64,000 nucleotides of DNA from positions 31,038 to 95,037 of the forward strand of contig CAZGCA010000005.1 of the NCBI GenBank assembly GCA_964524145.1. Reading direction: 5' to 3'. Each line of letters begins with the position of its first letter. Within the stretch, counting starts at the first letter, position 1. The notes under the pieces are model-generated. The model was not told where the DNA came from, ran no database searches, and worked only from the letters and a program-made list of their open reading frames with translations. Below are positions 3,530-52,490 of this stretch, piece after piece. This DNA comes from an uncultured bacterium (GTDB lineage: Bacteria; Hydrogenedentota; CAZGCA01). The position numbers and the translations under genes were made by a program.

Positions 3530-3733
3530 CGCCTGGCTCGCGACTCAATTCCAAGCTTGTTCTCTGTGCACAACGCAGTATACCACAGGATGAGACGTCC
3601 TCAAACAGATCACATTCCTTACGCGCGCAGGTACTCAGCTTGACGCCTCAGATATCCGGCTGAAAAGGACCCTCTAACCGAGACGTGGTATAATCATACG
3701 GTACTCTGCAACAACCGTCGGAAGTGCTGATGT

Positions 3734-17100: not shown

Positions 17101-19117
17101 CTGAGAACGTGTCTCTCGCGTCCGGAATCGTGTCGGGTACACTATCCTGGACGTAGTAGTAACCGGGGATAGTCACCTCTTGGGGTAACACGAAGCCGGA
17201 TCTCCAGACGTCGTTAGTCGAAGTGGGACCCGAAGAGCCGCATGTCCCTCCGCCTAACACCCATAACATGTTCTGAAACGCCACCGCTCCATGCCCCCAG
17301 CGGTACGACCACGGTGCATAAGCCCTTTCTTGCGTCCATGTTATGCCGTCTGGGCTGCTCCAGATATCTCTCATGGCAACATCGCTACAGTATTGTGGGT
17401 GGCTCCAATCTCCGTGTCCGCCCAGTACCCATAGTTTCTCCTGGAACGCCACCACCCTATGGCTCCCGCGCCCAGACCAGCCTGCGTCAGCCGTTTCTAG
17501 CGTCCATGTCCTGCCGTCCGGGCTGCTCCAGACGTCGTTCTTATAGCTACCTCCCAACACCCACAACTTGTTCTGGAGCACCACCGCCTGATGGCCCGCA
17601 CGCCTCCCGCAGCCTGCATCAGCCGTTTCCAGCGTCCATGTCCTGCCGTCCGGGCTGCTCCAGACCTCCTTCTGGGCTCCGTAGTACTCGGGTCCTCCCG
17701 GATTTCCAGCTCCGCCTAACACCCACATCTTGTTCTGGAACACAACCGCCTGATGGCCAGCGCGCCCCGGCCATTCTGCGTCAGCCGTTTCCAGTGTCCA
17801 TGTCCTGCCGTCCGGGCTACTCCAGACGTCGTTCCGATAGCCACCACCTCCCAGCACCCACACCTTATTGTGGAACACAACCGCCGGAGCCGCCGCCCAT
17901 TCTGCGTCAGCCGTTTCCAGTGTCCATGTCCTGCCGTCCGGGCTACCCCAGACGTCGTTCCGATAGCCATCACCTCCCAGCACCCACAATTTGTTCTGGA
18001 ACACCACTACCTCGTGCGCTCGCCGAGGCGACCAGCCTGCGACCGCCGTTTCCATCGTCCAACTTTTCCCGTTAGCCGCGGTTCCGATCTGTGCCTGAAA
18101 CACCTTGTTTGACGAGGGGGTGTGCGTGTCGGGGTGGGATGGGCTGTAGACATATAACCCATCGAGGTACACATTAACGTGGTGGTTCCTCTGCGACCCG
18201 TCGATGATCTGGCGGTCTGTCCCGATGACGGCGATATGGAAGTACCACGCGCCGGTGTTTGTCGCCGTATACTGGACGGTCTTCGGGTCGGCCGCGTCGC
18301 GGAAAGTTCCGCCGGTATCCACGACGGTATACCCGCTCTGATCCATGACCCATAGATAGCCATAGAGGTCTGCCCCTGCCATATAGTTTGTATAATCCAC
18401 GGTCACATCCGGACTGCAATACCATTTAGTGCTGTCCGGATGACTGGGCGAATACAGCGGCAGACGGTCCTGGAACCAGTCCGGGACGCCATCGCCGTCA
18501 GCGTCTTCAAACCCGTCGGAGACACCGTTGCCGTTCAGGTCCTGGTAGGCGTCGGGGATGCCGTTACCGTCGATGTCCTCGAAGCCGTCTGGTAGACCGT
18601 TGCCGTCGAAATCCTGGGCCGCGTCGGTGGTACCGTCCTGATCGAGATCGAATATATCGTCCGGTGTGCCGTCATCGTCTACGTCCAACCATTCCAGTCT
18701 GGTGTCTATCTCGAACAGGTCTGATTCGGGCACGCTGCTGCCGCCCGCAGCCGGAACGCTTTCCAGAAGCACCGCCGCTTCAGCGATCTGGCGTTCCGGG
18801 TGATCGTTGTAAACATGCCAGACGACCATGTTGTCCTGGCCCGGCTGGACATCATCGCCTATGTCGCCATAGACAGTACTGGCGGTAAGGTCGTACGAGA
18901 GTGCGCCATCGTCGCTGGCCGACAGACTCAGTGTCACCGGCCCTGACGGCGTGACGGACAGATCATAAAAGATGCGTACGAAACTACCGTATTGTTCTGC
19001 TTCAACATAGGTAATCTCGACCGTTTGCGCATGGACGGAACTTGTCCTCCCCAACACGGCAAATACCATAACCGACAGGACTAAACCACGCGCTAAGAAA
19101 CGACATGCCGATTTCAT
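14186..19117 (-). CDS. Giant secreted surface protein (about 1640 aa) with TSP3-like Ca-binding repeats, a Kelch beta-propeller, Ig-like modules and a C-terminal double dockerin
   Basis: Signal peptide MKSACRFLARGLVLSVMVFAVLGRTSSVHA. D-x-D-x-D-G repeats (DVDDDGTPDD...DQDGTTD...DGNGLPDG...). Six or more Kelch-like units (VVFQNKLWVLGG...RNDVWSSPDGRTWT). Three ~85-aa near-identical Ig-like modules. It ends in two dockerin type-I segments (DVNGDGQVNALDVQLVINAALALI). Confidence 0.75.
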   Translation of the reverse strand: MKSACRFLARGLVLSVMVFAVLGRTSSVHAQTVEITYVEAEQYGSFVRIFYDLSVTPSGPVTLSLSASDDGALSYDLTASTVYGDIGDDVQPGQDNMVVWHVYNDHPERQIAEAAVLLESVPAAGGSSVPESDLFEIDTRLEWLDVDDDGTPDDIFDLDQDGTTDAAQDFDGNGLPDGFEDIDGNGIPDAYQDLNGNGVSDGFEDADGDGVPDWFQDRLPLYSPSHPDSTKWYCSPDVTVDYTNYMAGADLYGYLWVMDQSGYTVVDTGGTFRDAADPKTVQYTATNTGAWYFHIAVIGTDRQIIDGSQRNHHVNVYLDGLYVYSPSHPDTHTPSSNKVFQAQIGTAANGKSWTMETAVAGWSPRRAHEVVVFQNKLWVLGGDGYRNDVWGSPDGRTWTLETADAEWAAAPAVVFHNKVWVLGGGGYRNDVWSSPDGRTWTLETADAEWPGRAGHQAVVFQNKMWVLGGAGNPGGPEYYGAQKEVWSSPDGRTWTLETADAGCGRRAGHQAVVLQNKLWVLGGSYKNDVWSSPDGRTWTLETADAGWSGRGSHRVVAFQEKLWVLGGHGDWSHPQYCSDVAMRDIWSSPDGITWTQERAYAPWSYRWGHGAVAFQNMLWVLGGGTCGSSGPTSTNDVWRSGFVLPQEVTIPGYYYVQDSVPDTIPDARDTFSESALITITPGLAPGTYWFHVVAMDAAGTLSAPAHYKFIVTDAPPVVSSPTHPDENTRGSGVEVTFEWTDGGVPDVVKYWYAWGTSEGATPSTTTTETSVTFGCVESGVHWFLVQSEDTWGYLSPVAERKVTVGATPGPVVTSSTHVDPHTAYAARDVALAWTPAPASGAPYYYVWDRSPYSVPTAGSTSTAEATLEVTNLSLGRYFLHLIATDDCGHLTAPTHFAVRIREARPPHVQVIPTSNTSNIGFAWTDPDSFATGTPKFHLAFDQTVSTTVTAVSPDSTDLYTWNEFGKPDGVYYFHIVSQDVHGNLSAQGDYTIVVGDEMVGLSAPSETITKSGPVYYTVTYPGATSVNLAAGNVTLNKTGTANGTVTVEDTAEPLAKKIVISNITGDGTLGITIAAGTATYAGSTTAPAIGPSGTFTVDNTPPVLTITGPVPTATASGPVEYILTYEGATDILLEAADVTLVSAPENAAGATVELSGDGNTTRTVTLTNCWGEGRLHIEVAAGTAWDTAGGYANAATGASVTVDSVPPTGGITINGGAAWTDSRNVTLALAYSDGNGSGVAQMRFSNNGSDWSSWETVATSKTWTLYAFDEGKTVYAQFKDNAGNVSATATDTISLDTTAPTGTVTIDGGADWTSSSDVTLTLSSGDGSGSGVSDMRFSNDGTNWSSWEAVGTGKTWTLSAGDGPKIVYAQFRDAADNISQTVTDGINLDTTGPTGTIVINSGATYTNTLDVTVGLTASDGTNGIGVADMRLSSDGTTWDEWEDFSASTPWTLTAGDGEKTVYVQFRDTLGNTSTSFSDTIVLDTVPPTVSIGEPSAEFTATREITYTVTYGEADNVVLTWNDVVLNRTDTANGVVTVSGAGNTTRTVTISNISGGGTLSISLGADTASDAAGNLAPAAGPSDPVTVFNCNINGDDHIDALDVQLVINAALGIDIGNFDADVNGDGQVNALDVQLVINAALALI
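17250..18070. repeat. Tandem near-identical 126-135-bp coding repeats (Kelch units) inside the giant surface protein gene
   Basis: Repeated DNA blocks such as cagccgtttccagtgtccatgtcctgccgtccgggctactccagacgtcgttccgatagcc recur with a few mismatches. The antisense ORF 17242..18075 also shows a periodic peptide. Confidence 0.8.
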
Positions 19118-19340
19118 AGAATATCCCTCCCGATAACCTGATTGAAGCACCTTCTCATATCCAAGCAATTACATTACTGTACTCGACTATAAACCAAAGC
19201 ACCTCCTACGTCAAGCATCGCGCCGGTAGTCCCGAGACATGGGTGATGTCCAGGTGCCCACAAACTGGCGGCGGGGGGAAGATAGGTGTTATAATTCAAT
19301 AAAGAGACCGAAACGCTTAGAAAACCAGGGGGTGATAACG

Positions 19341-40078: not shown

Positions 40079-40551
40079 GCTTTCTGATCGAGAAACTTCG
40101 CGGCTACACCTGGCCGTTGCCGGTACGCGTGAAGCGTTCTCCTCCCTTCTTTCAACTGCTCAAGTTCGTCAGATACTCCCGCTATCTTCCCGCGAACCAC
40201 CCGCTCACCGGCGGTTTCTGCGTCAATGGCGCGCTCGAGAACGCTGAGGCTGGCTTGATATGCCGTCTCAACGTCGGTTCTCATTTCCTCGGACGCCTCA
40301 TCTCGGGCAGCCAGCCAGCATTTGACAGCGGTTGCCGTACGCTCGCATGCCTGTTTAAGCAACGACAAAACCTCTTGGCGGCGCGAGCCGATCTCCTCCG
40401 CCAGAGGCTCGGAGTGATCGTCACGACTTTTTCTGAACAGCTCGCCTATCTGCACCAGCTCCTTGCAGAGCGTATCCTGTCGCACGAGGCAATCAACCAG
40501 AGTCTTGCCGCACTCGTCGGCTTCAACAGTCTGCGCACCACGTCCTGTCAT
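40075..40551 (-). CDS. Small helical hypothetical protein, translationally coupled between the TPR protein and the histidine kinase
   Basis: About 158 aa from ATG 40551, with ATGA overlaps at both ends (40548-40551 and 40075-40078). No recognisable domain. Confidence 0.4.
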   Translation of the reverse strand: MTGRGAQTVEADECGKTLVDCLVRQDTLCKELVQIGELFRKSRDDHSEPLAEEIGSRRQEVLSLLKQACERTATAVKCWLAARDEASEEMRTDVETAYQASLSVLERAIDAETAGERVVRGKIAGVSDELEQLKEGRRTLHAYRQRPGVAAKFLDQKA

Positions 40552-43547
40552 GAGCCGCCCCGAAGGTTGAGCTCGACCGCGGCGAACTCCTGTTTCGCTT
40601 TGGCTAGGTCTTTCCAGTGGGATTTGGGGAACAACGTCAGGAAATCGGCATAGTGTTTTTCGGACGCGGTATAATCCTGCTGTTGGAGACAGCAGTTCCC
40701 CTGCTGTAGTGACGCCCACTCGACGGCACCATCCGTCAGGTCGCCGAGCGACGCTATCTCGCCGTAGATGTTGCCGGCAGCCTTATAGTCGCCGATCTTA
40801 AAGAGTCGGTCGCCCCACTCAACGCAATGGGTCCGCAGGAAATCCGACGTCTTGTCTTGCCGTTGAGCCAGCGATTTCATCTCGTTCACCAACCGTGCCG
40901 CATCGGTATCGCGCTCGAGGGCTACGTACGTGCGTAACAGCACCCCATCGCCTTCGAGGGTTCTCTGGCTCGGATACATCTCGTGCGCTCTGGCGAGCTC
41001 TTTCAACGCACCGTGCAGGTTGCCGACGCCGCGCTTCGTCGTTCCAAGTTCGACCAGCGTGTTGTAGGCCACGGAATCAGGCACCCGTTTCAGGTCGACT
41101 CGTGCCAGATACTGCAGCCCCTTCTCCCACTCGCCGCACTTGAGGAACAGCGCTCCCGCCATGTACAACGCCTCGTGGTTTTTGTCTCCGCTCGCCATCG
41201 TGACGTACGTTTCCGCTGCGTCTTCATACAAACCGAGGTGCTCGTACACCTCCCCCATCTTGCGCAGAATGAGATCGCGGCGAGGCCCGGTCACGGTGTC
41301 GGCGAGTTTCGATTCCAGCACGTTTAGTGCCACCTGAGGTTGGCCTGATAGATAGTACACCTCCGCCAACTTCATGCTCGCATTGAATACGATCCCTTCC
41401 GAAGGATCCCCCGTCGCGACCTTCCGCAAGGCGACTTCGCTCTGTTCAAGGTTGCCGCTTGCAAGCGTGCTCAGACCTAGTCCGTACCACGCGTTTGTCT
41501 GGTCTTTATCCTTCCTCAACGCTTCCTTATACAGCCTGGTCGATTCGCCCCAGTTGCCGTCCTCATACTCGAGTTCGGCCAGTTCAATCATAAGAGGAAC
41601 GTTGTCCGGCCAGCGGTAGTTGCTGCTTCGGGCCGTTCGGAGTGCTTCCGGCTGCCTGTCTTGCTCGCAGAGTATCTTACACAGCAGCAGCGCCGCCGCC
41701 GTGGCGTGCTCGCTGTCGGGAAACACGTCCATCACGTTCAGACACGTCCGTTCGGCCTTCCCATAGTCTTTCTTGCCCGCAAACACCTCGGCAAGGTGCA
41801 GCAACACCTTGTCGTTACCCTCGACGGATGTCGAAACCTGAAGCCTCTTCTCAAGCTCGTCGGCGGCAGTGTCGAAGTCGCCGTTCTCAGCAGCTATTAC
41901 GCTGAGCTGTTCGTATGCCGGCGCAAGCACGTCGTCGTCGCGGGTCTCCTGCACGAGTTTCTTGAATATCTTCTCGGCGGCACTGGTTCTGCCTTGTCCC
42001 GCAAGCGACCGCGCCAGCAGGAAGTTGGCCTTATCGAGTATCGGCTCACTCTGATAATCCCACATAATCTGTCGCAACTTCTTTTCAGCGGCAACGTGAT
42101 CCCCTTCAAGGAGAAACATACGCCCGACGGCAAGTTGTACCTCGGCGATATCCGGATAATCGGGGAACTTCTGCGCAGTCTCTTCATACGTCTCGCGGGC
42201 TACCGCGTAGCTTCCGGCCCGTTCATAGAGCCCGCCCACCCGTGCCATGGCCAGCGGAACGCTGGGACTCTCCGGGTCGTGCTCGACGGCTTTCTGATAG
42301 AGCTCGCGGACGTGTCTTATTTCCGCCGGATTGGATGCTTCGTGGAGCAAGGCTTCCGACGTTTCGGCCAGCAAGAACATCATTGGCGAACGGGGGGCAG
42401 CCGGGTCTGCTTTCGCCAGCTCTTCCAGCAAGAGCTCTCTGGCTTCGACATATTCGCCGTCATCGAACAGAGATTTGGCTCGATCCAACGCCGTGATGAT
42501 AGGCGCCGGTTCCCCAGAGACCGGCTTGGAGACGTCGGGCGCCCTGTATTGAGAGCGGGAGCCCATCCACGAGTAAGCCGCCATCCAGGTAAGAATTCCA
42601 ATAAAGACGGAACATGCCACCGGCAAGATGGACCGGACACTTGCCGGAAACCTCACGACTATCCGTTTCCCCTCTGGGGGTTCTCCAGTCTCGGGTTCCT
42701 CGGCTTCCGGTTTTGCCGCTTCCTCCACCTGCGCGGCTTCTTCCAACTCGGCCGCTTCTTCCACCTCAACTTCGGCGACAAGGTCGGCGAGATCGGTTGT
42801 CGGACGCTCAGCGACCTCAGCTTCAAGTTCTTCGGTGGGAACGTGTGCCGCCGCCTCGAGCGCAGACAGAACGGCATCTTCATCTATGGCCGATTCTGCC
42901 TCGGCAGTTTCGATAGACTCCTCCGTCGTAACGGGTTCAGCTGGCTCAGTGCCTGCCACTGCCGACACCGTTTCTTCCTGATAGAGGTCGGCCTCCGCGG
43001 GTTCCGCTGCCGCAGCAACCTCCGGCTCGACTTCCGGCTGGCTCACTTCTGCCTCAGCCACCGGCTCCTCCGGCGGCACACTCAGCGCTTCCATCGCTGC
43101 AACCAGTTTGCCTTTCTCCACCCCCTCCGCCGGAGTCTCGGCTTCCTCCTCCGTTGTTTCCTCCTCCGGAGCGGGTTCCTCCTCCGGAGTGGGTTCCTCA
43201 GGCAACTCGGCAGTTTCAGGACTCTCGTCGGCCTTGGCTTCTACTCGAAGCGCCTCCTCGAACATCCTGTCGAGTTCCGTCTCGCTGATGCTTTCTGCCG
43301 TCGTGGTGCTTTCCTCGTCCGGACTAACACCCAGCTCGGCGAAAAGTCTGTCGACTTCCGTTGTTGAAAGCTCGGCCGGCATAGCGGCGTCGAGATCGTC
43401 CAGATCCTCATCTGCCGCGCCGCCGCCGCTTAAGATCGACTCGAGATCGTCCAGCGATGGCGCTTCTTCGGCCGAGTCCTCGGTAGGTTCCGCCTGTTCA
43501 GGCGCGTCTGCATCAGGGGGTGGTACCACGGGTCCGCCTCCGCGCAT
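40548..43547 (-). CDS. Large TPR-repeat protein (about 1000 aa) with an acidic low-complexity N-terminus and one TM
   Basis: Glu/Ala/Pro-rich N-terminus (EEPAPEEETTEEEAETPAEG...). TM segment ILPVACSVFIGILTWMAAYSWM. At least 12 TPR-like repeats follow. Start taken at MRGGGP (43547). Confidence 0.6.
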   Translation of the reverse strand: MRGGGPVVPPPDADAPEQAEPTEDSAEEAPSLDDLESILSGGGAADEDLDDLDAAMPAELSTTEVDRLFAELGVSPDEESTTTAESISETELDRMFEEALRVEAKADESPETAELPEEPTPEEEPAPEEETTEEEAETPAEGVEKGKLVAAMEALSVPPEEPVAEAEVSQPEVEPEVAAAAEPAEADLYQEETVSAVAGTEPAEPVTTEESIETAEAESAIDEDAVLSALEAAAHVPTEELEAEVAERPTTDLADLVAEVEVEEAAELEEAAQVEEAAKPEAEEPETGEPPEGKRIVVRFPASVRSILPVACSVFIGILTWMAAYSWMGSRSQYRAPDVSKPVSGEPAPIITALDRAKSLFDDGEYVEARELLLEELAKADPAAPRSPMMFLLAETSEALLHEASNPAEIRHVRELYQKAVEHDPESPSVPLAMARVGGLYERAGSYAVARETYEETAQKFPDYPDIAEVQLAVGRMFLLEGDHVAAEKKLRQIMWDYQSEPILDKANFLLARSLAGQGRTSAAEKIFKKLVQETRDDDVLAPAYEQLSVIAAENGDFDTAADELEKRLQVSTSVEGNDKVLLHLAEVFAGKKDYGKAERTCLNVMDVFPDSEHATAAALLLCKILCEQDRQPEALRTARSSNYRWPDNVPLMIELAELEYEDGNWGESTRLYKEALRKDKDQTNAWYGLGLSTLASGNLEQSEVALRKVATGDPSEGIVFNASMKLAEVYYLSGQPQVALNVLESKLADTVTGPRRDLILRKMGEVYEHLGLYEDAAETYVTMASGDKNHEALYMAGALFLKCGEWEKGLQYLARVDLKRVPDSVAYNTLVELGTTKRGVGNLHGALKELARAHEMYPSQRTLEGDGVLLRTYVALERDTDAARLVNEMKSLAQRQDKTSDFLRTHCVEWGDRLFKIGDYKAAGNIYGEIASLGDLTDGAVEWASLQQGNCCLQQQDYTASEKHYADFLTLFPKSHWKDLAKAKQEFAAVELNLRGGS

Positions 43548-43964
43548 TCTCCCAAAGCCGCAAGGGTAGAGTTGTCTCCCTCGACAAAAATATGTGCTGT
43601 CAAGTGCGTAACAGCACGTTAAAACACTGTACCGACGTCGTCCGTGATGTTCAGCTATATCATAGCACATTTTCGCGGTATTGTCAAGTCAATACTATCC
43701 CACAACATCTTGCGGCATGGGAACTTAACGGGATTTAACCCCATGTGCTGGGCTTACAAGCCCGGCAGAATATTCCTAGCGCGGCGGGATACTCTGAAAC
43801 AGGTGAATATGTGCAGCCGATGTATCGAGGAGCGGATCGAGGTTTTACGGTTCAAACCAAGGCCGCATATCTCGCTGGAGCCCTGGGGTGTGGGTATTGG
43901 GAAGTCTTGTATGGATTCACATTCGGGGGTGGATTGTACTACAATCAGAGAGTGAAAGGAGGGC

Positions 43965-44447
43965 ATGCAGATGAAGGTTTATCTGGTACAGCACGGTGAA
44001 CCTGTTCCGAAGGAGACGGATCCTGAACGTCCATTAACGGAGAAAGGCCGTGCGGATGCTCGGAAGGTTGCGAGGTTGCTGGGGATGTCGCAGGTCAAGG
44101 TTCCGGAAGCGTGGCACAGCGGCAAGACGCGGGCAAGGGAAACTGCGGAGATCCTTGCTGCTGCAATCGAGGCCGAAGTCTCGAAAGCTGAAGGTCTCGC
44201 TCCGCTCGATCCGGTATCCCCGGTTCGCGACAAGATAGAGGGGCGCGCGGAGGATTTGATGCTGGTGGGTCACCTGCCGTTCATGGCGCGGTTGGCCTCG
44301 CTGCTCGTGCTGGACAATGAGTTGCCGGAGATAGTAGCATTCCGCCAGGGCGGCATCGTATGCATCGAGGGCCGGGAGGACGGTGGGTGGCGGGTGGCGT
44401 GGATGGTCGTCCCGGACCTGCTTTGCGGTGATACTGGAGACGCGTGA
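43965..44447 (+). CDS. sixA: Phosphohistidine phosphatase SixA-like (histidine phosphatase superfamily)
   Basis: MKVYLVQHGEPVPKETDPERPLTEKGRADARKVA carries the RHG-type catalytic motif region of SixA. 160 aa. Confidence 0.6.
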   Translation: MQMKVYLVQHGEPVPKETDPERPLTEKGRADARKVARLLGMSQVKVPEAWHSGKTRARETAEILAAAIEAEVSKAEGLAPLDPVSPVRDKIEGRAEDLMLVGHLPFMARLASLLVLDNELPEIVAFRQGGIVCIEGREDGGWRVAWMVVPDLLCGDTGDA

Positions 44448-44475
44448 GCAACCGGGAAACGGAAGGAAGGACTGC

Positions 44476-45492
44476 ATGAACACAGGAGAACCGGAAAGAA
44501 AGCTGAAGGTGGGATTTGTGGGATGCGGAAGCCATGCGCGGATGGCAATATATCCGTGCTTGCGTATGGCACCGATAGAACTTTGCGCGGTCTGCGACAT
44601 GATACCTGAAAAGGGGCAGGAAGTCGGAGGGTGGTTCGGCGCGCAACGGATCTATACAGACCACATCGAGATGATGGAACAGGAGACACTGGACGCGATC
44701 TTCGTCGTGGCTGGCCCGAAGGTCCATCCCGTGGTGGCGTGTGACGCGCTCGACCGCGGGTTGCACGTCTGGATGGAGAAACCGCCGGCGTTGAGTTCGG
44801 CGGATGCGATCGAGGTCGTCAAGAGAAGCGAGAAAGCGGGCAAACACGTCATGGTGGGGTTCATGAAACGGTTCGCCACGGGATACGTCATGGCGAAAGA
44901 AGCGATGGGTGACCCGGCGTTTGGCACGCCGACAATGCTGCACTGTCGATATACCTCCGCTCCGTATGCTGACGAGGAGAACCATGTCCGTGATTTCGCG
45001 ATCCATCACCTTGACCTCGCACGGTTCTTCATGGGTGACGTCTCGAGGATCTACGTCGAGAAGTCTCGCATCCGGGATGGTGTTCTTGCGATAGCCGCTA
45101 CGGTGAAGTTTGTAAACGGCGCAGTGGGCGTACTGCACCTGGGCTCATGCGAAGGGTGGTTCAGCGGCGGCGAACGGGTGACGATAGGCGGCGACGAGAC
45201 CGCGGTCATAGTGGACAACGTGGTGAGTTTCCAGAGATTCCCGAAACCGGCGCCGGGACGTGAAGGCGATGCGCACCTCAAACACGGCACCTTCTGGGAA
45301 CCCAACTGGTACTATCCTGCCGACCGCAACAGCGGCCTTGTTCATCAAGGCTATGCAGGCGAGGTAAGACACTTTGCCGAGTCCATCCTCGCAGGAGCTG
45401 CTCCGAAGCCCGACATGAGGGACGGGTACGAAGCTCTGAGGCTTGTGGAAGCGATTATCGAGAGCGACGGTGCCGTGGTCGAATTAAGCTAG
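44476..45492 (+). CDS. Gfo/Idh/MocA family NAD(P)-dependent oxidoreductase
   Basis: Rossmann motif LKVGFVGCGSHARMAIYP and the EKP motif (WMEKPPALS). Confidence 0.75.
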   Translation: MNTGEPERKLKVGFVGCGSHARMAIYPCLRMAPIELCAVCDMIPEKGQEVGGWFGAQRIYTDHIEMMEQETLDAIFVVAGPKVHPVVACDALDRGLHVWMEKPPALSSADAIEVVKRSEKAGKHVMVGFMKRFATGYVMAKEAMGDPAFGTPTMLHCRYTSAPYADEENHVRDFAIHHLDLARFFMGDVSRIYVEKSRIRDGVLAIAATVKFVNGAVGVLHLGSCEGWFSGGERVTIGGDETAVIVDNVVSFQRFPKPAPGREGDAHLKHGTFWEPNWYYPADRNSGLVHQGYAGEVRHFAESILAGAAPKPDMRDGYEALRLVEAIIESDGAVVELS

Positions 45493-45561
45493 GTGCCGTG
45501 CATGGGGTCTATCGTAGAGTCCTGCCAGCGGAACAACTCGTGGTCTATCTTCTCGAGTTCG
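45483..45561. repeat. 79-bp direct repeat, copy 1 (left boundary of island). It is an orphan duplicate of the 3' end of the radical-SAM gene.
   Basis: 77/79 identity to 51387..51465. On the minus strand it encodes ELEKIDHELFRWQDSTIDPMHGT-stop, matching the radical-SAM C-terminus apart from one P-to-S change. Confidence 0.85.
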
Positions 45562-45783
45562 TAGCTGGTGGGCGCGGCACGGCGGAGCAGTGGTTCAAAG
45601 AAGGCAAGAACGCAGTGAAATGGAGTCGGCTCTCGTGTCACGACTTCATGGACAACCAGGTGCCGACTGCAACTGTTCGCCCTGGCCTATAACTTGGGCA
45701 ACTTCCTTCGCAGACTCTCAGGAATGGAAACGACTCAAAACCCGATGGGGAGGTCCGTCCCAAATTCGCACGTACAGCGCTGA
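45562..45783 (+). pseudogene. 3'-terminal remnant of an IS4/IS1380-superfamily DDE transposase, carrying a frameshift
   Basis: AEQWFKEGKNAVKWSRLSCHDFMDNQV followed, after a 1-nt insertion, by LQLFALAYNLGNFLRRL. This is the conserved C-terminal tail of this transposase family. Only ~70 codons remain. Confidence 0.6.
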
Positions 45784-45922
45784 CGGTCGTTCTTGGTGAC
45801 TGCTATCGGGCCGTGAACGACCTTCAAAGAGCGACCGTGGCAGCAGAATTGGTCTTGAATCTGTCAGTGTGTGACTATATAGTGGTTGGTAACTTGCCCG
45901 TGGTGGTCACGCGAAGGTCTAT

Positions 45923-47032
45923 ATGGGAAATGTCGGATCAATATATGGAGGTGGGATCGTGAAAACATGTTCCGTCTTATTGATGGTAGTGGTTCTCTGC
46001 CTGTTCTCATCGCCCAGCAATGGGCAGAAACACCCTGTCAAAGTAATTTTCGATTCTGATATGGCGTTGGATAGTGAAGACATGAATGCCCTTTGTCTGC
46101 TGCATGCTTTTGCTGATGAAGGTGAAGCAGAAATAATTGCCACTGTGGCTTGTGGCTATGAAACAAACAGGGCATCAGGTGCCACAATCGATGCTATCAA
46201 TACATTTTACAGTCGGCCCGATATTCCAGTAGGAACCACAAAAATACATCCGGTTTTTCATAAGTATGCCATACCATTGGCACGCAGTTCGTGGACTACA
46301 GCTGTACGCGATAATTACCCGCACGATGTTCCGGATGACGATAAATGTCCGAGTGCTGTATCCGTCTACCGGGAAGCATTGTCAAAACAACCAGATAACA
46401 GCGTGGTGATTGTGACAACAGGTTGGCTTGTGAATCTCAGAGACCTGCTGGATTCAAAACCAGACGGCAGAAGCGACCTGAACGGGAGAGAACTGGTCAG
46501 CTCAAAAGTGAAAGAACTTTCAGTGATGGGCGGATCTTTTCCGCAGGGATGGGAATATAACTTTTGCTTTGCCGGTGTTGGACGATGCACAAAATATGTT
46601 CTGGAAAACTGGCCCGAGAACGTTCCGGTAATGATAAGCGGAGTCGAGATCGGCCTGAAAATAATATCCGGGAAAGTCTATAAGGATGAGCTCCCTGATT
46701 GCCCCCTGCGTAGAGGATTAGAAGACGCCTGGAATGCCCTCAGCGCAGGTAGACCGAGCTGGGACGAAACCGCAGTGATATATGCCGTAAGGGGATTGTC
46801 ATTCGAAGGCGACGAATATTGGAAAAAACAATCCCAGGGAAGCGTATTAGTTGATGACACAACAGGGGTAACCAAATGGGTGCCCACACCTGATAAGAAT
46901 CAATCATACCTCATAGAATCCATGAATCCTGATTTACTCGCCAGATTGATGGAAAGTCTTATTGTTAACAGTACCAAGAATGCATTAAAGATCACTGATC
47001 AACCTGATTCCGCAGATGAATCAGTTGACTAA
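45923..47032 (+). CDS. Secreted inosine-uridine nucleoside-hydrolase-like protein (putative) in a lower-GC segment
   Basis: Signal peptide. FDSDMALDSEDMNAL resembles the IU-NH DxDxxxDD Ca-binding motif. Local GC is visibly lower than in neighbouring genes. Confidence 0.4.
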   Translation: MGNVGSIYGGGIVKTCSVLLMVVVLCLFSSPSNGQKHPVKVIFDSDMALDSEDMNALCLLHAFADEGEAEIIATVACGYETNRASGATIDAINTFYSRPDIPVGTTKIHPVFHKYAIPLARSSWTTAVRDNYPHDVPDDDKCPSAVSVYREALSKQPDNSVVIVTTGWLVNLRDLLDSKPDGRSDLNGRELVSSKVKELSVMGGSFPQGWEYNFCFAGVGRCTKYVLENWPENVPVMISGVEIGLKIISGKVYKDELPDCPLRRGLEDAWNALSAGRPSWDETAVIYAVRGLSFEGDEYWKKQSQGSVLVDDTTGVTKWVPTPDKNQSYLIESMNPDLLARLMESLIVNSTKNALKITDQPDSADESVD

Positions 47033-47614
47033 GGCCATGACAGGATAGAGCCAAGGAAATGTGAGGTGATCAAGAAACTGGATTTCCCTAGTAACAGATG
47101 TATGTGCGACGGCAGCGCGAAACCTTATTTGCTGACGGTCGTCCTGTCGGGAAGGGAGACGTTAGGCGGCTAAGAGACGGGCGCACGAGATGGTCTGCAA
47201 TCAGCTCGACGTGGCTGAGCGTTGGTCAAAGCAGGGGGGTCTGGACGGTTTTGCGTTGTGCTGCGACTCCTGCTTTAATTCGGGTCCTTTCCTTGGTCCG
47301 GGTCTTTTTGGGGAGATGGTGAGGCCCTATTTGACGAGGTTATGTGTGGGTCTGCGAGACCTGGGGTTTTATGGTATCAAGCATTCTGACATATAAAGAT
47401 GCCTTACTGAGGATTGCCGATTGATGGGATGGGCAGTCGCTGGTAATGTCGACCGATGATTGCTATCATCACAATCGCGTGCTACGATCCACATTAATGT
47501 ACCCGCCAGGTGCTGGCGGGGGCGAGTCTGGTGTGACTGTCTTGCCGGATTCATACGCGCGGTTTTCACCGCGCAGCGGACGTCTGAAGGGAATGCCGAA
47601 CGGAGGGTAGATCC

Positions 47615-48643
47615 ATGAATGATGTCGTGGCCGGTCTTCTAATTGTCCTCGTTGCATCAGTATTGCAGGGAAGCTTCATGGTCCCCATGTCCTACGTGAA
47701 GAAGTGGCAATGGGAGAATTCGTGGGCGCTGTTCTCAGTTCTTGGGATGATCGGATTCAACTGGGTGTTGGCCATGGTCACGATTCCCTCGCTTCTCGAT
47801 GTATACCGCGCTGCCCCAGCTGCCGCTTTGGCAACGCCTGGCGTTTTTGGCCTGTGCTGGGGCGTAGGTGCGGTCTGTTTTGGTTTGGGGGTGGCGGCAG
47901 CCGGTTTTGCCTTGGGATATGCGATAATCATGGGTATTGTGCTTAGTTTCGGGGCCTTCATTCCCATGCTTGTTCAGCACCAGGAGGAGATTCTCTCGAC
48001 AAAGGGACTGTTGGTTCTCTCGAGCTTGGCCGTCATGATTGTTGGCATTGCGGTGTTTGGAACGGCGGGGACGCGCAAGGAGAAGGAGCAAAGCGAGAAG
48101 ACGGGGGCTATCACCAAGACTTCGACATTGTCGATCAAGGTGGCTCTTGCCATCTGCATCGTGGCGGGGCTGCTTTCTTGTCTGACCAACGTCGGCTTTT
48201 CCCTTAGCGAATCGCTTGTCGATCTCGCAAAAGAGCACGACGTCTCCGAGAACTGGGCCGGCAACTCGGTCTGGGCGATCCTATTCACTTTCGGGGCTCT
48301 CGTGAATCTGGGGTATTGTGGGTATCTGTTCACGAAGAACAAATCATTCAGTGCGTACCGAGAGCCGGGTCTGTTGAGGAATTTCCTTCTGGTGGCGTTC
48401 ATGTCGTTTATGTGGATTGGCAGTTTCGTTCTCTATGGCCTGGGCGCGGGCATGATGGGCGATTGGGGCAATGTGATAGGCTGGTCGGTGTTTATCGCGT
48501 TGTCGATAACCATCGCCAACCTGTGGGGCTTCGTCCAAGGAGAATGGGCCAACACGACAGCCAAGACACGCACGTTGATGGGTACCGGCCTTGGGATTCT
48601 GGTCGTAGCCATCGTCATCACCGCATTCAGTAACCTGAAATAG
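47615..48643 (+). CDS. RhaT-like sugar:H+ symporter (10-TM DMT-superfamily)
   Basis: 342 aa with 10 predicted TM helices. The N-terminus (VVAGLLIVLVASVLQGSFMVPMSYVKKW) resembles the L-rhamnose-proton symporter family. Confidence 0.45.
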   Translation: MNDVVAGLLIVLVASVLQGSFMVPMSYVKKWQWENSWALFSVLGMIGFNWVLAMVTIPSLLDVYRAAPAAALATPGVFGLCWGVGAVCFGLGVAAAGFALGYAIIMGIVLSFGAFIPMLVQHQEEILSTKGLLVLSSLAVMIVGIAVFGTAGTRKEKEQSEKTGAITKTSTLSIKVALAICIVAGLLSCLTNVGFSLSESLVDLAKEHDVSENWAGNSVWAILFTFGALVNLGYCGYLFTKNKSFSAYREPGLLRNFLLVAFMSFMWIGSFVLYGLGAGMMGDWGNVIGWSVFIALSITIANLWGFVQGEWANTTAKTRTLMGTGLGILVVAIVITAFSNLK

Positions 48644-48656
48644 CAGGGAGGAACCC

Positions 48657-49583
48657 ATGGACAAGATTCTAGTGATAGGAAGCTACAATGTGGGGTTGAC
48701 GGTCTTTGGCCCGGCGATTCCGAAAACCGGCCAGACAATCCTGGGCAACCACTTTGACATGGGGCCTGGGGGCAAGGGGTCTAACCAAGCAATTGCCGTC
48801 GCACGTCTCGGCGGCGATGTCACCTTCCTCGCGAAAGTGGGCGGCGACTCGTTCGGCAGGGACGCCCTGGACCTTTTCCGTCGCGAGGGAATCAACACGG
48901 ACTACATTGGGACGGATGACGCGGCCCACACCGGGGCGGGCATTATCTTCGTGGATGCCGACGGAGAGAATGCCATCGGCGTCGCACCGGGCGCGAACCT
49001 GAAGCTCACGACCGATGAGTTGGACAGGGACGTCGAACTCTTTGAAAGATCGGCATGCGTGCTTATGCAACTCGAGATTGCGTTGCCCACGGTGTACCAC
49101 GCCATCGAGAAGGCAAAGGAACATTCGTGCACGGTCGTGCTGAATCCCGCACCCGCTCAAAAGCTGGATCCCCGGTACGTCTCGATGGTCGATATTCTCA
49201 CACCCAATGAGAGCGAAGCGGAGGTGCTCACCGGCGTCGCTGTAACGGACCGCGAGAGCGCCGCGTCCGCGGCCCGTGCACTGCTCTCGCAGGGCGTGGA
49301 GACAGTCATCATTACCATGGGCGAACAGGGCTCTCTGTTGGTTTCCGAGGGTGTCGAGGAGCATTTTCCGGCTTACCGGGTTGACGCGGTGGACACGACG
49401 GGCGCCGGCGATGCGTTCAATGCGGGCTTGGTGTACGCGCTGGCCGCGGGTCAAGGCATCGAAGAAGCGATAGACTTCGGTTCGAAAGTGGCGGCTATCC
49501 TGGTGACGCACATCGGCTGTGTGCCCGGCCTGCCGACGCTGGCTGAAGTCGAGGGGTTTTCTGGGAGTCCGGGGCATGGCTGA
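48657..49583 (+). CDS. rbsK: Ribokinase (PfkB family)
   Basis: N-terminal GSYNVGL...GGKGSNQA motif and the C-terminal anion hole DTTGAGDAFNAGLVYAL. Confidence 0.8.
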   Translation: MDKILVIGSYNVGLTVFGPAIPKTGQTILGNHFDMGPGGKGSNQAIAVARLGGDVTFLAKVGGDSFGRDALDLFRREGINTDYIGTDDAAHTGAGIIFVDADGENAIGVAPGANLKLTTDELDRDVELFERSACVLMQLEIALPTVYHAIEKAKEHSCTVVLNPAPAQKLDPRYVSMVDILTPNESEAEVLTGVAVTDRESAASAARALLSQGVETVIITMGEQGSLLVSEGVEEHFPAYRVDAVDTTGAGDAFNAGLVYALAAGQGIEEAIDFGSKVAAILVTHIGCVPGLPTLAEVEGFSGSPGHG

Positions 49584-50679
49584 GGACGCGCTTACCTCGC
49601 GCCAAAGAGTCAATCTCGCAATCGATCACCAAAGGCCAGACAGGGTCCCGCGCGACTTCGCCGCCGTGCCGGAGGTCTGGGAACAGCTTGGCGCATTCTT
49701 CGGCACAACAGACCGGGGGCGAATCCTGGACGTCCTTGGCGTGGATTGCCGCGTTGTTTCGTACGACCTCTTCTGCCGCGATCCCGATGTCGACGAGCAG
49801 GGCCCGGTTGGTGGAGCGTGGCGAAAGGCCGAACCCGACGGCAGCTATCGGGACATTTGGGGCGCGCACCGGATGCTCGTCAAGAACCCATTTGGTGCAC
49901 TTGACCAGTTCGCTTCGTTTCCGCTCGGGCACGCGGAGACTACCGGCGATATGCAATCCTATCGCTGGCCCAGCCCTGCATGGTGGGATTTCTCGGGACT
50001 ACGGGACTTCGCCGCACGGATCAACGATCACGCCGGCTACAACATGCGCTACCGGATAGGCGCGATTTTCGAAACGGCTTGGTCGTTGATCGGGTTTGAG
50101 AAGGCACAGCTTTGCCTGGCACTGAAGCCAGCGTTGCTCCGATACATGATGGAGCGTATCACCGAGGTCCACGAGGCAAACCTGCGGAAGGTTCTCGATA
50201 CGTGTAGCGACCTGATCGACATTGTTTACTTCTACGACGACGTCGCTTCACAAAACAGCCTGTTGATGAGTCCGGAGATGTACGCCAGCACAATACAACC
50301 CTATCACCAGCGGATTATCGAGGTTGCAGCCCGTTTCGACAAGCCTGTGATGATGCATTGCTGCGGGGCAGTGTATCCGCTCATCGAACGGTTCATTGAC
50401 ATGGGGCTGTCGATTCTAAACCCCGTGCAACCCTCAGCCCGCGACATGAATCCCGAGAAACTTGCCAACGATTTCGGCGGCAGCATCACGTTTCACGGGG
50501 GCATCGACGTGCAGCGGTTTCTGCCTTTCGCTACTCCCGAGCAAGTGAGAGATAAGGTTAGACACACCTGTGAGCTGCTGGGACGCCACGGGGGGTACAT
50601 CATGAGTGGTTCTCACCATCTTCAGGCGGACACACCCTTAGAAAACATCCTCGCCATGTATGGTGTGGCCGCGGGGTGA
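49576..50679 (+). CDS. Uroporphyrinogen decarboxylase (URO-D) family protein / MtaA-like methyltransferase
   Basis: URO-D fold signatures (PVMMHCCGAVYPLIERFIDMGLSILNPVQP...ITFHGGIDVQ). Its start overlaps the ribokinase stop. Confidence 0.55.
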   Translation: MAEDALTSRQRVNLAIDHQRPDRVPRDFAAVPEVWEQLGAFFGTTDRGRILDVLGVDCRVVSYDLFCRDPDVDEQGPVGGAWRKAEPDGSYRDIWGAHRMLVKNPFGALDQFASFPLGHAETTGDMQSYRWPSPAWWDFSGLRDFAARINDHAGYNMRYRIGAIFETAWSLIGFEKAQLCLALKPALLRYMMERITEVHEANLRKVLDTCSDLIDIVYFYDDVASQNSLLMSPEMYASTIQPYHQRIIEVAARFDKPVMMHCCGAVYPLIERFIDMGLSILNPVQPSARDMNPEKLANDFGGSITFHGGIDVQRFLPFATPEQVRDKVRHTCELLGRHGGYIMSGSHHLQADTPLENILAMYGVAAG

Positions 50680-50770
50680 AAGTAAACGGGAATCACTGCA
50701 ATATAACGATCTGTTCTACGACCAGGAGCAATTCGCCTAGGGTCGATCAAGCTACGTCTCCTGTTTCGCG

Positions 50771-51217
50771 ATGATGTTCGACTTGACGTTCTATGATCCC
50801 GTTACATACGAGTTCACAGTGGATAAGTCTGTGGAAAACGGTAAACGCGAATTCGGTGGATATGCCAGCGTCGTGCTGTGGCATGCCTACCCGCGTGTTG
50901 GATTTGACCAGAGGAACCAATTCGATTTCTACCGAGACATGCCGGGTGGTCTTAAGGGATTACGCGACTTGAGCAGGTCTTTCCACGAGAAAGGAACTAA
51001 GGTCTTCATTAACTACAATCCTTGGGACAAGGGGACCCGTCGGGAAGGCAAGCCTGATGTGGACCTGTTGGTGGAGATGGTGACAGCCATTGAAGCTGAC
51101 GGTATTCTTCTGGATACAATGAGGCAGGGGGGCGCGGAATTTCGGCGGCGATTGGATGCTGCTCGGCCTGGACCGTTGTTCAACACTTGGATTCCGATGC
51201 GTTGTGGACTTGGCTAA
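50771..51217 (+). CDS. Hypothetical protein
   Basis: 148-aa ORF with no recognisable motif. It is the last gene inside the island. Confidence 0.3.
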   Translation: MMFDLTFYDPVTYEFTVDKSVENGKREFGGYASVVLWHAYPRVGFDQRNQFDFYRDMPGGLKGLRDLSRSFHEKGTKVFINYNPWDKGTRREGKPDVDLLVEMVTAIEADGILLDTMRQGGAEFRRRLDAARPGPLFNTWIPMRCGLG

Positions 51218-51386
51218 GAAAGATTCGAGGAGCCCAAAGAGAGCTGGCCAACAAAACGCTCCAGCGAACGTTCGTGTTAGGGTAGGTCTCCCACCTGGAT
51301 AGTCGCCATTGCCGCAGGAAACACGGTCCATGTCCACCGAAAAACGACACAGAACAGGACACATTCAGCGGTTTGGGGCATCAGGG

Positions 51387-51465
51387 ATTAAGCTAGGTGC
51401 CGTGCATGGGGTCTATTGTAGGGTCCTGCCAGCGGAACAACTCGTGGTCTATCTTCTCGAGTTCG
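51387..51465. repeat. 79-bp direct repeat, copy 2 (right boundary of island). This is the genuine 3' end of the radical-SAM gene.
   Basis: attaagctaggtgccgtgcatggggtctat(t/c)gtag(g/a)gtcctgccagcggaacaactcgtggtctatcttctcgagttcg is shared with 45483..45561. Confidence 0.85.
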
Positions 51466-52490
51466 GGGCTGCCGGGCGCGAACCGGCGCGAGTACATCTC
51501 CGGCGGGTGCGTGGTCAGCAACCAGGAGAAATCGTCCACGCCGATCTCGAGGGCGAGCCGCCGCGCACGATCCATCTCCTCGTCCGAATCGTTCCACCTG
51601 AACAGTATGTACCGCCACATGATCCGGGGTTTCTCGAGGCCAAGCGAGTTCCGCAACCGCACCATCGACTCCATCACCTTGACGACCGCCTCGAAATCGC
51701 CACCCACCCTGTACTGTTCGTACACCTCCTGCGAAGCGCCGTCCACAGAGAATAGCAGCTCGTCCACGCCCGTCTCGATCACCTCGCGCTGTTTAGCCTC
51801 ATCGCGCAACAGCAGCCCGTTCGTGCTGCAATGTATGAGCATCTTCTCGTTGACGTGTTTCGCGTAACGGAGCATATCCGCGGCACGCGGATGAAGGAAA
51901 CTCTCTCCGTAGTCGTAGAACAGCAGCAGTCTTAGACCGGGGCCAAGCTGATCGATCACCGATTTGTAGGTCTCGAACGGCATTGTCTGCCGTTTCCGGC
52001 TCGCAGCGATAAGCTCGCGTCCGCACCCGGGACATCGAAGGTTGCACGCCACTATCGGCTCGATCCAGAGCCGTTCCGGCAACCGTTTCGCCGTCTCGGT
52101 TCGCGTGGCGTAGTCGATCTCCGAGTTTGCCACACGTCTGCAAAACACGCAGTAGCGGCAGGCGTACACCTCCATGGGATTGTACAGCACGCGCCGCCTC
52201 AGCCTGCGATACGGTTCACCGTTCCAGATGCTCTCGAACGGCTCCTGCTCGACGTTTCCCAGCGGCATCCATTCGAGCGTGTCCTGACAGCTACAAACCA
52301 CCGTGCCGTCGCACAGCACCGTCGTCCCAGTCCACAATTGGGCGCACCACCTTCTCGACGCGGAACGTTCGCGCGGCGCAGGCGGCCCCGGACGTATCAT
52401 TCTTTTCGCATCGAAGGCGCTCTGCTTGAGCTTAACGAGCCGTGCGTACGATCGTCGCTGCCTAAGCCGCTCCTTGATTCTCGACAACAC
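51393..52490 (-). CDS. Radical SAM protein with an N-terminal Cys-rich SPASM/twitch-like segment
   Basis: CNLRCPGC is the Cx3Cx2C radical-SAM cluster motif. The N-terminal LCDGTVVCSCQDTLEWMPLGNVEQEPFESIWNGEPY resembles the SPASM motif (C...C...lGNv...s...eiW). An additional CRYCVFC is present. Confidence 0.6.
   Translation of the reverse strand: MLSRIKERLRQRRSYARLVKLKQSAFDAKRMIRPGPPAPRERSASRRWCAQLWTGTTVLCDGTVVCSCQDTLEWMPLGNVEQEPFESIWNGEPYRRLRRRVLYNPMEVYACRYCVFCRRVANSEIDYATRTETAKRLPERLWIEPIVACNLRCPGCGRELIAASRKRQTMPFETYKSVIDQLGPGLRLLLFYDYGESFLHPRAADMLRYAKHVNEKMLIHCSTNGLLLRDEAKQREVIETGVDELLFSVDGASQEVYEQYRVGGDFEAVVKVMESMVRLRNSLGLEKPRIMWRYILFRWNDSDEEMDRARRLALEIGVDDFSWLLTTHPPEMYSRRFAPGSPELEKIDHELFRWQDPTIDPMHGT

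Follow-up and report, generated by a model that had tools for sequence, protein, structure and literature searches.

The island of ~5.8 kb that occupies positions 45577–51386 of a 64,000-nucleotide stretch of DNA from an uncultured bacterium of the Hydrogenedentota (contig CAZGCA010000005.1; hereafter the window) looks like the ordinary scar of a gene acquisition that proceeded without a dedicated recombinase, and not like a site-specific mobile element. It lies between two convergent chromosomal genes, encoding an oxidoreductase and a radical-SAM protein, and is bounded by direct repeats which an earlier, sequence-only reading had interpreted as the attL and attR sites of an element integrated into the 3′ end of the radical-SAM gene. 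We have found that this flanking repeat is ~94 bp of recipient DNA that was duplicated during the insertion, and not an att core shared by element and target.

Results

The features of the locus are collected in Table 1. Both flanking genes are intact. The C-terminus of the oxidoreductase is native, its length being equal to that of a 72 % identical orthologue (in L021), and the radical-SAM gene, found to be NF033640-like in an NCBIfam scan, is equal in length to its 79–81 % identical orthologues. The 79-bp direct repeats that had been described, matching at 77 of 79 positions, were recovered by a pattern search of the window as its sole two copies, at 45483–45561 (no mismatches) and 51387–51465 (two mismatches), where no copy of the 79-nt pattern is expected by chance (100 shuffles). 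Their true extent is larger: comparison of the window with itself by BLAST gave 94 nt at 93.6 % identity (88/94; 45483–45576 versus 51387–51480), and a repeat search of the window aligned as much as 102 nt, with 91 % identity. Self-BLAST detected no other dispersed repeat of comparable size within the window, the remaining self-matches being short-range repeats at 0.4–1.5, 15–18 and 21.3–21.5 kb.

Table 1. Features of the island and its flanks (positions in the window)
Feature	Position	Strand	Description
GFO/IDH/MocA-family oxidoreductase	44476–45492	+	Pfam PF01408, PF02894, PF22725; intact left flank
Direct repeat, copy 1	45483–45576		Orphaned radical-SAM 3′ end, ~29 C-terminal codons with the stop (− strand)
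IS1380/ISKpn23-like transposase scrap	45570–45711	+	142 bp, internal; ~codons 340–386 of ~451
Filler	45712–45807		96 nt; no homology to IS relatives, L048, plasmids or phages; no Pfam match
Scrap	45808–45936	+	79 % to L048 4217–4344, inverted; PhyH-like fragment: upstream region and first ~12 codons
Nucleoside-hydrolase-like gene	45959–47032	+	Pfam PF01156, 37.3 bits (cut-off 34.2); ORF open from 45923
Spacer	47033–47601		~570 bp; no recognisable gene
RhaT-family sugar/H+ symporter	47615–48643	+	Pfam PF06379 (E = 8e-27); 91 % nt to L048
Ribokinase	48657–49583	+	TIGR02152, 345 bits (cut-off 299.65); PfkB
URO-D-family protein	49576–50679	+	Pfam PF01208 (E = 5.5e-21); MtaA/CmuA-like, well under the cut-offs of those models
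Gutted gene	50660–51217	+	Residues ~46–250 of a 550–730-aa family, fused to the family's last ~20 residues and stop
Right end of insert	51218–51386		169 nt, unassigned; right joint 51386/51387
Direct repeat, copy 2	51387–51480		Working radical-SAM 3′ end and 6 nt matching the oxidoreductase 3′ end
Radical-SAM gene, N-terminal SPASM/twitch	51393–52490	−	PF13186 (residues 49–114), PF04055 (143–278); intact right flank

Copy 2 belongs, as had been supposed, to the radical-SAM gene that is still complete. The repeat begins 6 nt past the stop codon of this gene and so also takes in the very end of the oxidoreductase gene, two codons and the stop. Copy 1 had been described as an orphan duplicate that encodes the C-terminus and stop in antisense, and it is indeed a displaced 3′ end: its antisense reads ELEKIDHELFRWQDSTIDPMHGT followed by a stop, with a single P>S change. 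The 79 nt in which it follows copy 2 give way to four mismatches within 8 nt and then to the motif GGGCGCG (45570–45576), and its similarity to radical-SAM orthologues extends over 31 codons, up to 45584. No secondary structure was found in the repeat (z = +0.5), and no template for the mismatch cluster beside the left joint was found locally.

Two metagenome contigs of a sister lineage, L037 and L049, which come from two different samples and have 93–95 % nucleotide identity to the window, lack the island: in them the oxidoreductase and radical-SAM genes adjoin and run towards each other, their stop codons overlapping. Positions 1–2761 of L037 correspond to 42845–45587 of the window and positions 2661–3581 to 51392–52312, and L049 is alike. 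This is the empty site, with oxidoreductase adjoining radical-SAM gene, that the sequence-only reading had predicted, and its presence in these relatives establishes that 45577–51386 is a true insertion. Ten contigs, drawn from different samples and made with different assemblers, carry the filled allele at 99.96–100 % identity to the window; both junctions are spanned by L038 and L039 and the right one alone by L040, L043, L044 and L045, and the short-read contigs L041, L042, L046 and L047 terminate within the repeat, from which it is evident that the repeat disturbs assembly. These last four contigs could be taken as a sign that the island or the empty site had been mis-joined through the repeat. 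We find an artefact of this kind scarcely credible, however, given that the filled structure is identical in all ten contigs, that the empty site occurs in two contigs that differ from one another at 20/1024 positions, and that the two copies in the window differ from each other, unlike a collapsed repeat. An intermediate allele, for instance with an intact IS or with the insert and no orphan copy, was not found.

The informative relatives were obtained solely through a 90 %-identity cluster look-up. Exact look-ups of the 365-aa radical-SAM ORF and of P0001 gave no match. A scan of a genome collection with the radical-SAM protein returned no relative above 53 % identity and none that shared neighbours, and the top match in a metagenome scan with the oxidoreductase was the 72 % orthologue, which lacks synteny. 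The radical-SAM orthologues of 79–81 % identity (L017–L020) all lie in a single arrangement, in which the GT9 and radical-SAM genes converge on those for DUF6807 and MR_MLE; they were rejected as a test of the empty site, as none of their neighbours is in the window.

The empty-site contigs also served as an outgroup for the two repeat copies. In a five-way alignment, both copies carry the states of the window lineage where these differ from L037 and L049 (AA/GG, G/A and T/G), and against this outgroup each shows a single change of its own. Since these lineage-specific bases are present in both copies, both must descend from the host's own target. This bears on a rival explanation, according to which a circular element with an attP equivalent to the radical-SAM 3′ end integrated here and later lost its integrase and left arm through an IS insertion and microhomology-mediated deletions. 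The topology fits such a history: as in integrase islands, ICEs and prophages, accessory genes are enclosed by direct repeats duplicating a gene's 3′ end, with the orphan 3′ end downstream, the target intact and the site empty in relatives. A repeat of which both copies are host-derived nevertheless sets the locus apart from those elements and argues against this history.

At the left joint the radical-SAM 3′ region and the interior of an IS1380-type transposase gene share 7 nt of microhomology, GGGCGCG; IS relatives start to align exactly at 45570, and the motif is found in copy 2 at the equal register. Nucleotide homology of L032 and L033 is limited to 45570–45707/45711, and plasmid ISKpn23 genes match the scrap with nt 1020–1158 of a 1356-nt gene. 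The scrap is recognized by Pfam PF13701 (E = 1.9e-6) and NCBIfam NF033539 (E = 9e-8), its peptide matches are at most 94 % identical, it carries a 1-nt insertion near 45662, and neither IS end is present. A frameshifted transposase 'tail' of IS4/IS1380 type had been noted at the left end, but the IS relatives, which match just this internal piece, rule out a tail.

IS1380-family elements are able to mobilise DNA next to their right end, and in ISEcp1 units the transposase lies at one end and points into the cargo; the target-site duplication of the family is about 5 bp. The island might accordingly be imagined to have arrived by one-ended transposition of an IS and its downstream genes as a unit, with later rearrangements that destroyed the IS and made the repeat, and in keeping with this the fragment is of the IS1380/ISKpn23 family, lies at the left (upstream) end and is directed into the island. 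We have dismissed this route as improbable, in that only a frameshifted 142-bp internal piece is left, without either inverted repeat, the flanking duplication is 94 bp and not ~5 bp, at least three unrelated scraps separate the IS piece from the first gene, and several additional events would be required to produce the repeat.

The nucleoside-hydrolase-like gene has the scrap at 45808–45936 fused to its 5′ end. The start of that gene which gives a protein of 357 aa is the one called in L038, and the protein has, as judged by inspection, a signal-peptide-like N-terminal segment. Its composition (GC 0.46, GC3 0.44) departs from that of the host genes (GC3 0.67–0.78), and tetranucleotide correlation drops to 0.20–0.47 at 45–48 kb, which bears out the earlier remark on the lower GC of this gene and marks part of the island as compositionally foreign. 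The RhaT, ribokinase and URO-D genes, by comparison, are of host-like composition. The RhaT-family symporter scores under the cut-offs of the NCBIfam RhaT models, and the URO-D-family protein was found in a protein collection in a 367-aa form; a URO-D pseudogene proposed at 47190–47396 was not supported. The last gene of the insert has lost its N-terminus and has suffered a large internal deletion. It has 1041 homologues; among the matches listed, the full-length ones are mostly ~540–730 aa, and residues 1–139 of the query align at positions ~50–250 of them, while tblastn with two family members (P0244 and P0257) placed the C-terminal 19–22 residues at 51156–51221. Our gene list agrees with that given earlier, except that the 'transposase tail' is an internal fragment and the 'hypothetical protein' a fragment of a larger protein.

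Besides the left joint, at least five breakpoints were located, at 45711, 45807/45808, 45936 and ~47602 and within the gutted gene, which make the insert a mosaic. The only other context found for the island genes is L048, which contains neither the radical-SAM gene nor an integrase and has in common with the island only the RhaT–ribokinase block (91 % nucleotide identity) and the 129-bp scrap, homology to the block beginning no more than ~13 nt before the start codon of RhaT. The genes flanking this block in L048 have no relative that is at least 90 % identical and the flanks are of 47–51 % GC, so that L048 is to be regarded as a different organism, of lower GC, and the idea that it represents a source locus for the RhaT block in a sister lineage was rejected.

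When the island genes, every ORF of 50 aa or more from its unassigned parts and the longest ORFs of the remaining 64-kb window were scanned with Pfam and NCBIfam, no recombinase was matched, in agreement with the earlier statement that no integrase remains. A Pfam transposase domain was likewise absent from these ORFs of the unassigned parts and from the longest ORFs elsewhere in the window. No tRNA genes were found. Similarity to plasmids and phages was confined to the IS scrap, part of the ribokinase gene and a single 70-nt match to a phage record. The history of a decayed integrase-type island can appeal to the foreign composition of part of the insert, partly atypical composition being usual in such islands, and to a left end that is a graveyard of scraps in which an integrase gene could have vanished. 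We nevertheless consider it unlikely. Apart from the lack of a recombinase gene or remnant in the scanned ORFs, the similarity between the copies reaches a microhomology joint with the interior of a transposase gene and has no defined core end; the insert ends in truncated genes and filler, its right end coming after the gutted gene; the recurrent targeting of integrase islands was not seen, none of 20 orthologous loci having its radical-SAM 3′ end twice; the context of the island genes in L048 is unrelated; and plasmids and phages hold no counterpart. Together with the host origin of the copies, these findings leave the attL/attR interpretation unsupported.

Discussion

Our current working hypothesis is that the insertion arose by short-homology or illegitimate recombination of the single-crossover, homology-facilitated illegitimate recombination (HFIR) or template-switch type, with duplication of the target, and we regard this as probable. 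The insertion, the empty site, the host origin of both repeat copies, the microhomology joint, the mosaic and the lack of a recombinase in the scanned ORFs are observed, whereas the exact pathway and the order of events are inferred. Ancestrally the oxidoreductase and radical-SAM genes were convergent with overlapping stops (CTAG). The DNA of 45577–51386 entered between them by a process that duplicated ~94 bp of the host target, the left joint being an illegitimate one at GGGCGCG, where the radical-SAM 3′ region is attached to the transposase interior. The insert itself is a patchwork, put together through several illegitimate joints from the foreign hydrolase-like gene, the host-like RhaT–ribokinase–URO-D block and the gutted gene. 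Three candidate routes are a single-crossover or 'ends-in' integration of a chimeric molecule bearing ~100 bp of host sequence, HFIR between filled and empty alleles, and replicative template switching, all of which would yield a duplicated target stretch and microhomology joints. It should be noted that 94 bp is short for a RecA-dependent single crossover, which counts against this explanation, as do the mismatch cluster, for which no local template was found, and the lack of an intermediate allele. The left joint could also be a secondary deletion scar, in which case the original duplication would have been longer and adjoining DNA, possibly including an integrase gene, would have been lost. 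A further alternative is that a duplication of ~94 bp is the regular footprint of an unrecognized integration mechanism acting in trans at the convergent junction, with the island as its non-autonomous cargo; a chromosomal recombinase, or an integrase that makes staggered cuts and hence very long target duplications, would be examples. We hold this to be very improbable.

Events of the proposed kind have been obtained experimentally. In E. coli, most of the single-crossover events recovered with deleted circular molecules had duplications of the homologous segment, of 109–950 bp, flanking the insert (PMC3240628), and Acinetobacter, Streptococcus pneumoniae, Pseudomonas stutzeri and E. coli have all served for experimental work on HFIR or short-homology single crossover (PMC3240628; references in PMC5361080). 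As at the present locus, foreign DNA is joined without a dedicated recombinase at a microhomology of a few bases, and a flanking segment is duplicated; in contrast, those were laboratory events with designed anchors, whereas here the event is ancient and the 94 bp fall slightly under the range of 109–950 bp. HFIR has also been proposed for natural loci that retain orphaned gene 3′ ends (PMC5361080). In the Rhs and T6SS effector–immunity arrays (PMC5361080), too, incoming DNA leaves an orphan 3′ piece of the resident gene beside the new DNA, but those arrays have differing toxin tips with immunity genes and arise recurrently, whereas here one near-identical 3′ end, without evident function, was left once.

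For the annotation of genomic islands, the locus is a caution that direct repeats duplicating the 3′ end of a gene are insufficient evidence for attL and attR; comparison of both copies with an outgroup tells a host-derived from an element-derived repeat. A 79-bp repeat also suffices to fragment short-read metagenome assemblies at the locus. As to the organism, the intact genes of the island could act jointly to scavenge ribose from external nucleosides, by hydrolysis outside the cell, RhaT-family import and phosphorylation by the ribokinase. A ribose/nucleoside scavenging trait made up of hydrolase, RhaT-family transporter and ribokinase is plausible, a reading drawn entirely from the family membership of the genes. 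Although of modest importance, the island is a clean natural case, with an empty-site comparator, of the entry of accessory genes into a chromosome without a dedicated recombinase.

Filled and empty sites

The oxidoreductase and radical-SAM genes that bound the island adjoin each other directly in two sister-lineage metagenome contigs, L037 and L049, retrieved through a 90 %-identity cluster look-up. L037 (3581 bp) also carries SixA, and its oxidoreductase is followed at once by the radical-SAM gene; its positions 1–2761 align with window 42845–45587 at 93.2 % identity and 2661–3581 with 51392–52312 at 94.9 %, and because these alignments overlap, about 100 nt of L037 match both window copies of the flanking repeat. 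L049 comes from a different sample, is 98 % identical to L037 and has the same junction, so that the empty site which the sequence-only reading had proposed seeking in relatives does exist. The filled site occurs in ten contigs from various samples and assemblers, 99.96–100 % identical to the window, and two of these (L038 and L039) run across the left and right junctions alike; samples in which the clone occurs include JGI 3300008516 and 3300028837, SRR3085416 and SRR26215678. The island is thus a genuine insertion. Misassembly explains neither of the two states and is barely credible as an origin for either, since the filled structure recurs across these samples and assemblers and the empty site in two separate samples.

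Several short-read contigs end within the repeat. Four Logan contigs of the same clone (L041, L042, L046 and L047) break there, with ends at window 51440–51465; L041 starts at 45532, inside one copy, and ends inside the other, its own ends overlapping by 17 nt, and elsewhere a contig of this type could wrongly be read as a circular element.

Radical-SAM relatives in the genome collection reach at most 53 % identity. Four contigs with 79–81 % orthologues (L017–L020) were of no use as a test of the insertion, their neighbours (GT9 upstream, DUF6807 and MR_MLE downstream) being absent from the window, and nor was L021, the top oxidoreductase relative (72 %) from a scan of metagenomes, which has no neighbours in common with it. 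A GT9 heptosyltransferase gene precedes the radical-SAM gene in all four orthologue contigs and a DUF6807 gene faces it in three, the facing gene in L018 being cut and unannotated. As these GT9 and DUF6807 neighbours have been lost from the window genome, rearrangement of its radical-SAM locus preceded the island's arrival. No second copy of the radical-SAM 3' end was found in 20 orthologous loci.

The flanking repeat and its origin

A pattern search of the window placed the 79 nt repeat at 45483–45561 (copy 1) and 51387–51465 (copy 2), with two mismatches, as the sequence-only reading had described, and found no further copy; the chance expectation from shuffled sequence is none. A repeat finder lengthened the match to 102 nt (91 % identity), and self-BLAST of the window gave 94 nt at 93.6 % (45483–45576 and 51387–51480). 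It was also correct that copy 2 is the real 3' end of the radical-SAM gene, which is intact, and that copy 1 is an orphan in whose antisense the final 23 residues and the stop can still be read; one residue is changed, and similarity of copy 1 to radical-SAM orthologues spans 31 codons. The repeat starts 6 nt past the radical-SAM stop codon and so takes in the oxidoreductase's last two codons and stop as well, the two stop codons overlapping in GCTAGG. The oxidoreductase ends at its native C-terminus, as shown by a 72 % orthologue of equal length. No notable secondary structure was found in the repeat.

In a five-way alignment that included both window copies, L037 and L049, the two copies had three lineage-specific states in common relative to L037 and L049: AA for GG in ATTAAG, G for A at repeat position 25 and T for G in GCTG. 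Each also has a private change, a synonymous C>T in copy 2 and a G>A, giving P>S, in the orphan. The common states indicate that both copies descend from the window lineage's own target sequence. Host origin of both is what duplication during the insertion event would predict, whereas host-lineage states in both would not be predicted for an element importing attP from outside the population. The proposal that the repeats are attL and attR of a site-specific element is thus not supported, since both copies carry host-lineage states.

Mobility functions were sought by Pfam scans of the island genes, of ORFs of 50 aa or more from the unassigned stretches and of the longest ORFs elsewhere in the window. 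None of these has a recombinase or transposase domain, which agrees with the absence of an integrase from the island noted previously, and no tRNA gene was found. The island could still be a decayed one of integrase type, with the left joint a secondary deletion that took the integrase gene; nothing positive supports this, and we consider it unlikely. Around the island lie core chromosomal genes (flagellar genes, DNA polymerase III delta, MurJ and sigma-54 regulators), and no counterpart of the island was found on plasmids or phages besides the IS scrap, part of the ribokinase gene and one 70 nt match to a phage record.

Contents and left joint of the island

Features of the island and its bounding genes (window positions)
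Feature	Position	Strand or orientation	Remarks
GFO/IDH/MocA oxidoreductase	44476–45492	convergent with radical-SAM gene	native C-terminus
IS scrap	45570–45711
Unassigned filler	45712–45807		96 nt
L048-like scrap	45808–45936	inverted	79 %; PhyH-like gene fragment (upstream region and first ~12 codons)
Nucleoside-hydrolase-like gene	45959–47032		GC 0.46, GC3 0.44; signal-peptide-like N-terminus (by inspection)
Spacer	47033–47601		~570 bp; no recognisable gene
RhaT-family symporter, ribokinase, URO-D-family protein	47615–50679		ribokinase above TIGR02152 cut-off
Gutted gene	50660–51217		residues ~46–250 of a 550–730 aa family fused to its last ~20 residues
Unassigned	51218–51386		169 nt
Radical-SAM gene	51393–52490	-	intact; 3' end is copy 2; SPASM/twitch domain N-terminal to radical-SAM core

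The insert is a patchwork. The nucleoside-hydrolase-like gene is indeed of lower GC, against a GC3 of 0.67–0.78 in host genes, and 45–48 kb is the window's tetranucleotide outlier; GC3 of the RhaT–ribokinase–URO-D block is host-like (0.69–0.73). There is a gene where a hypothetical protein had been called, but it is a gutted piece of a longer family.

Metagenome locus L048 has RhaT and ribokinase in common with the window at 91 % nucleotide identity (L048 4907–6540, window 47615–49249). A 129 bp piece (L048 4217–4344, window 45936–45808) is inverted in the window and fused to the hydrolase-like gene. In L048 the RhaT–ribokinase pair adjoins PanB and PhyH genes, for which no relative at 90 % identity or above was found, and the flanks have 47–51 % GC, from which we infer a different organism. 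The matches indicate that two organisms of differing composition have exchanged genes, and the RhaT and ribokinase genes have moved between lineages, though not as one package linked with the radical-SAM site.

At the left joint, the 79 matched bases are followed by 8 nt with four mismatches, in which the lineage-specific T is kept, then by GGGCGCG and transposase-like sequence. As copy 2 carries GGGCGCG at the same register, the radical-SAM/IS joint is a 7 nt microhomology, a mark of illegitimate recombination or of deletion between short repeats. No local template was found for the mismatch cluster beside the joint. Nucleotide alignments to two IS relatives (L032 and L033) begin exactly at 45570 (GGGCGCGGC...) and end at 45707–45711, so the transposase piece is a 142 bp internal scrap without IS ends; it has a 1 nt insertion near 45662. 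Plasmid ISKpn23-family (IS1380-like) transposase genes match the same stretch (nt 1020–1158 of a 1356 nt gene), and the motif FYNGRGTAEQWIKEGK is conserved in relatives of the peptide up to 94 % identical. Of the frameshifted IS4/IS1380-type transposase tail in the original description, the IS1380-like character and the frameshifting insertion therefore stand, but the piece is internal and not a tail. An ISEcp1-like transposition unit is improbable, given the missing IS ends and a duplication of 94 bp.

All 120 listed matches to the 56 aa transposase peptide (P0121–P0240) are ORFs of 47–98 aa from the same part of the IS1380-family transposase, and the inspected loci of L032–L036 carry IS copies with frameshifts or truncations. 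Metagenomes may be very rich in decayed copies of the IS1380 group, or else a short query biases the search towards short proteins.

Other genes in the window

Positions 5141–6418 (+) form one 425 aa ORF joining ECF sigma-70 regions 2 and 4 (residues 22–172) to a PheS-type class II aminoacyl-tRNA synthetase core domain (PF01409, residues 206–416, E = 2e-29), a fusion that would be unusual, should the ORF be real. The gene of a 1660 aa Kelch-repeat protein that has a dockerin domain at its C-terminus (14186–19168, -) contains diverged tandem DNA repeats at 17249–18061, with a 126 nt period and 93 % matches at 17767–18004 surrounded by longer repeats of 75–82 %. At 40548–43670 (-), a 1040 aa TPR protein has a long, acidic, low-complexity N-terminal region rich in Glu, Pro and Ala, for which short imperfect DNA repeats (43139–43202) code.

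Discussion

The observations agree with recombination that needs no dedicated recombinase and proceeds by short homology or illegitimate joining, and three variants may be envisaged: single-crossover or ends-in integration of a chimeric molecule that includes some 100 bp of host sequence; homology-facilitated illegitimate recombination (HFIR) of a filled allele with an empty one; or replicative template switching, in which the template would be left at GGGCGCG and the return made 94 nt behind. All three would yield a duplicated target and microhomology joints. In E. coli, duplications of 109–950 bp of the homologous segment flank the insert in most recovered events and arose via single crossover of deleted circular molecules (PMC3240628), an architecture that is a precedent for this locus, and HFIR has been proposed for natural loci retaining orphaned gene 3' ends (PMC5361080). 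Like integrase-type genomic islands, the locus has flanking repeats and an empty site in relatives; unlike them, it has no recombinase gene, no element-borne att site or recurrent site use, and no clean ends. An integration system that acts in trans, has so far gone unrecognised and leaves very long target duplications at the oxidoreductase/radical-SAM junction is a very improbable explanation. In its behaviour the locus resembles a scar of HFIR or single crossover; it adds one more case to a type of event already known, and its chief use is as a caution when att sites are called.
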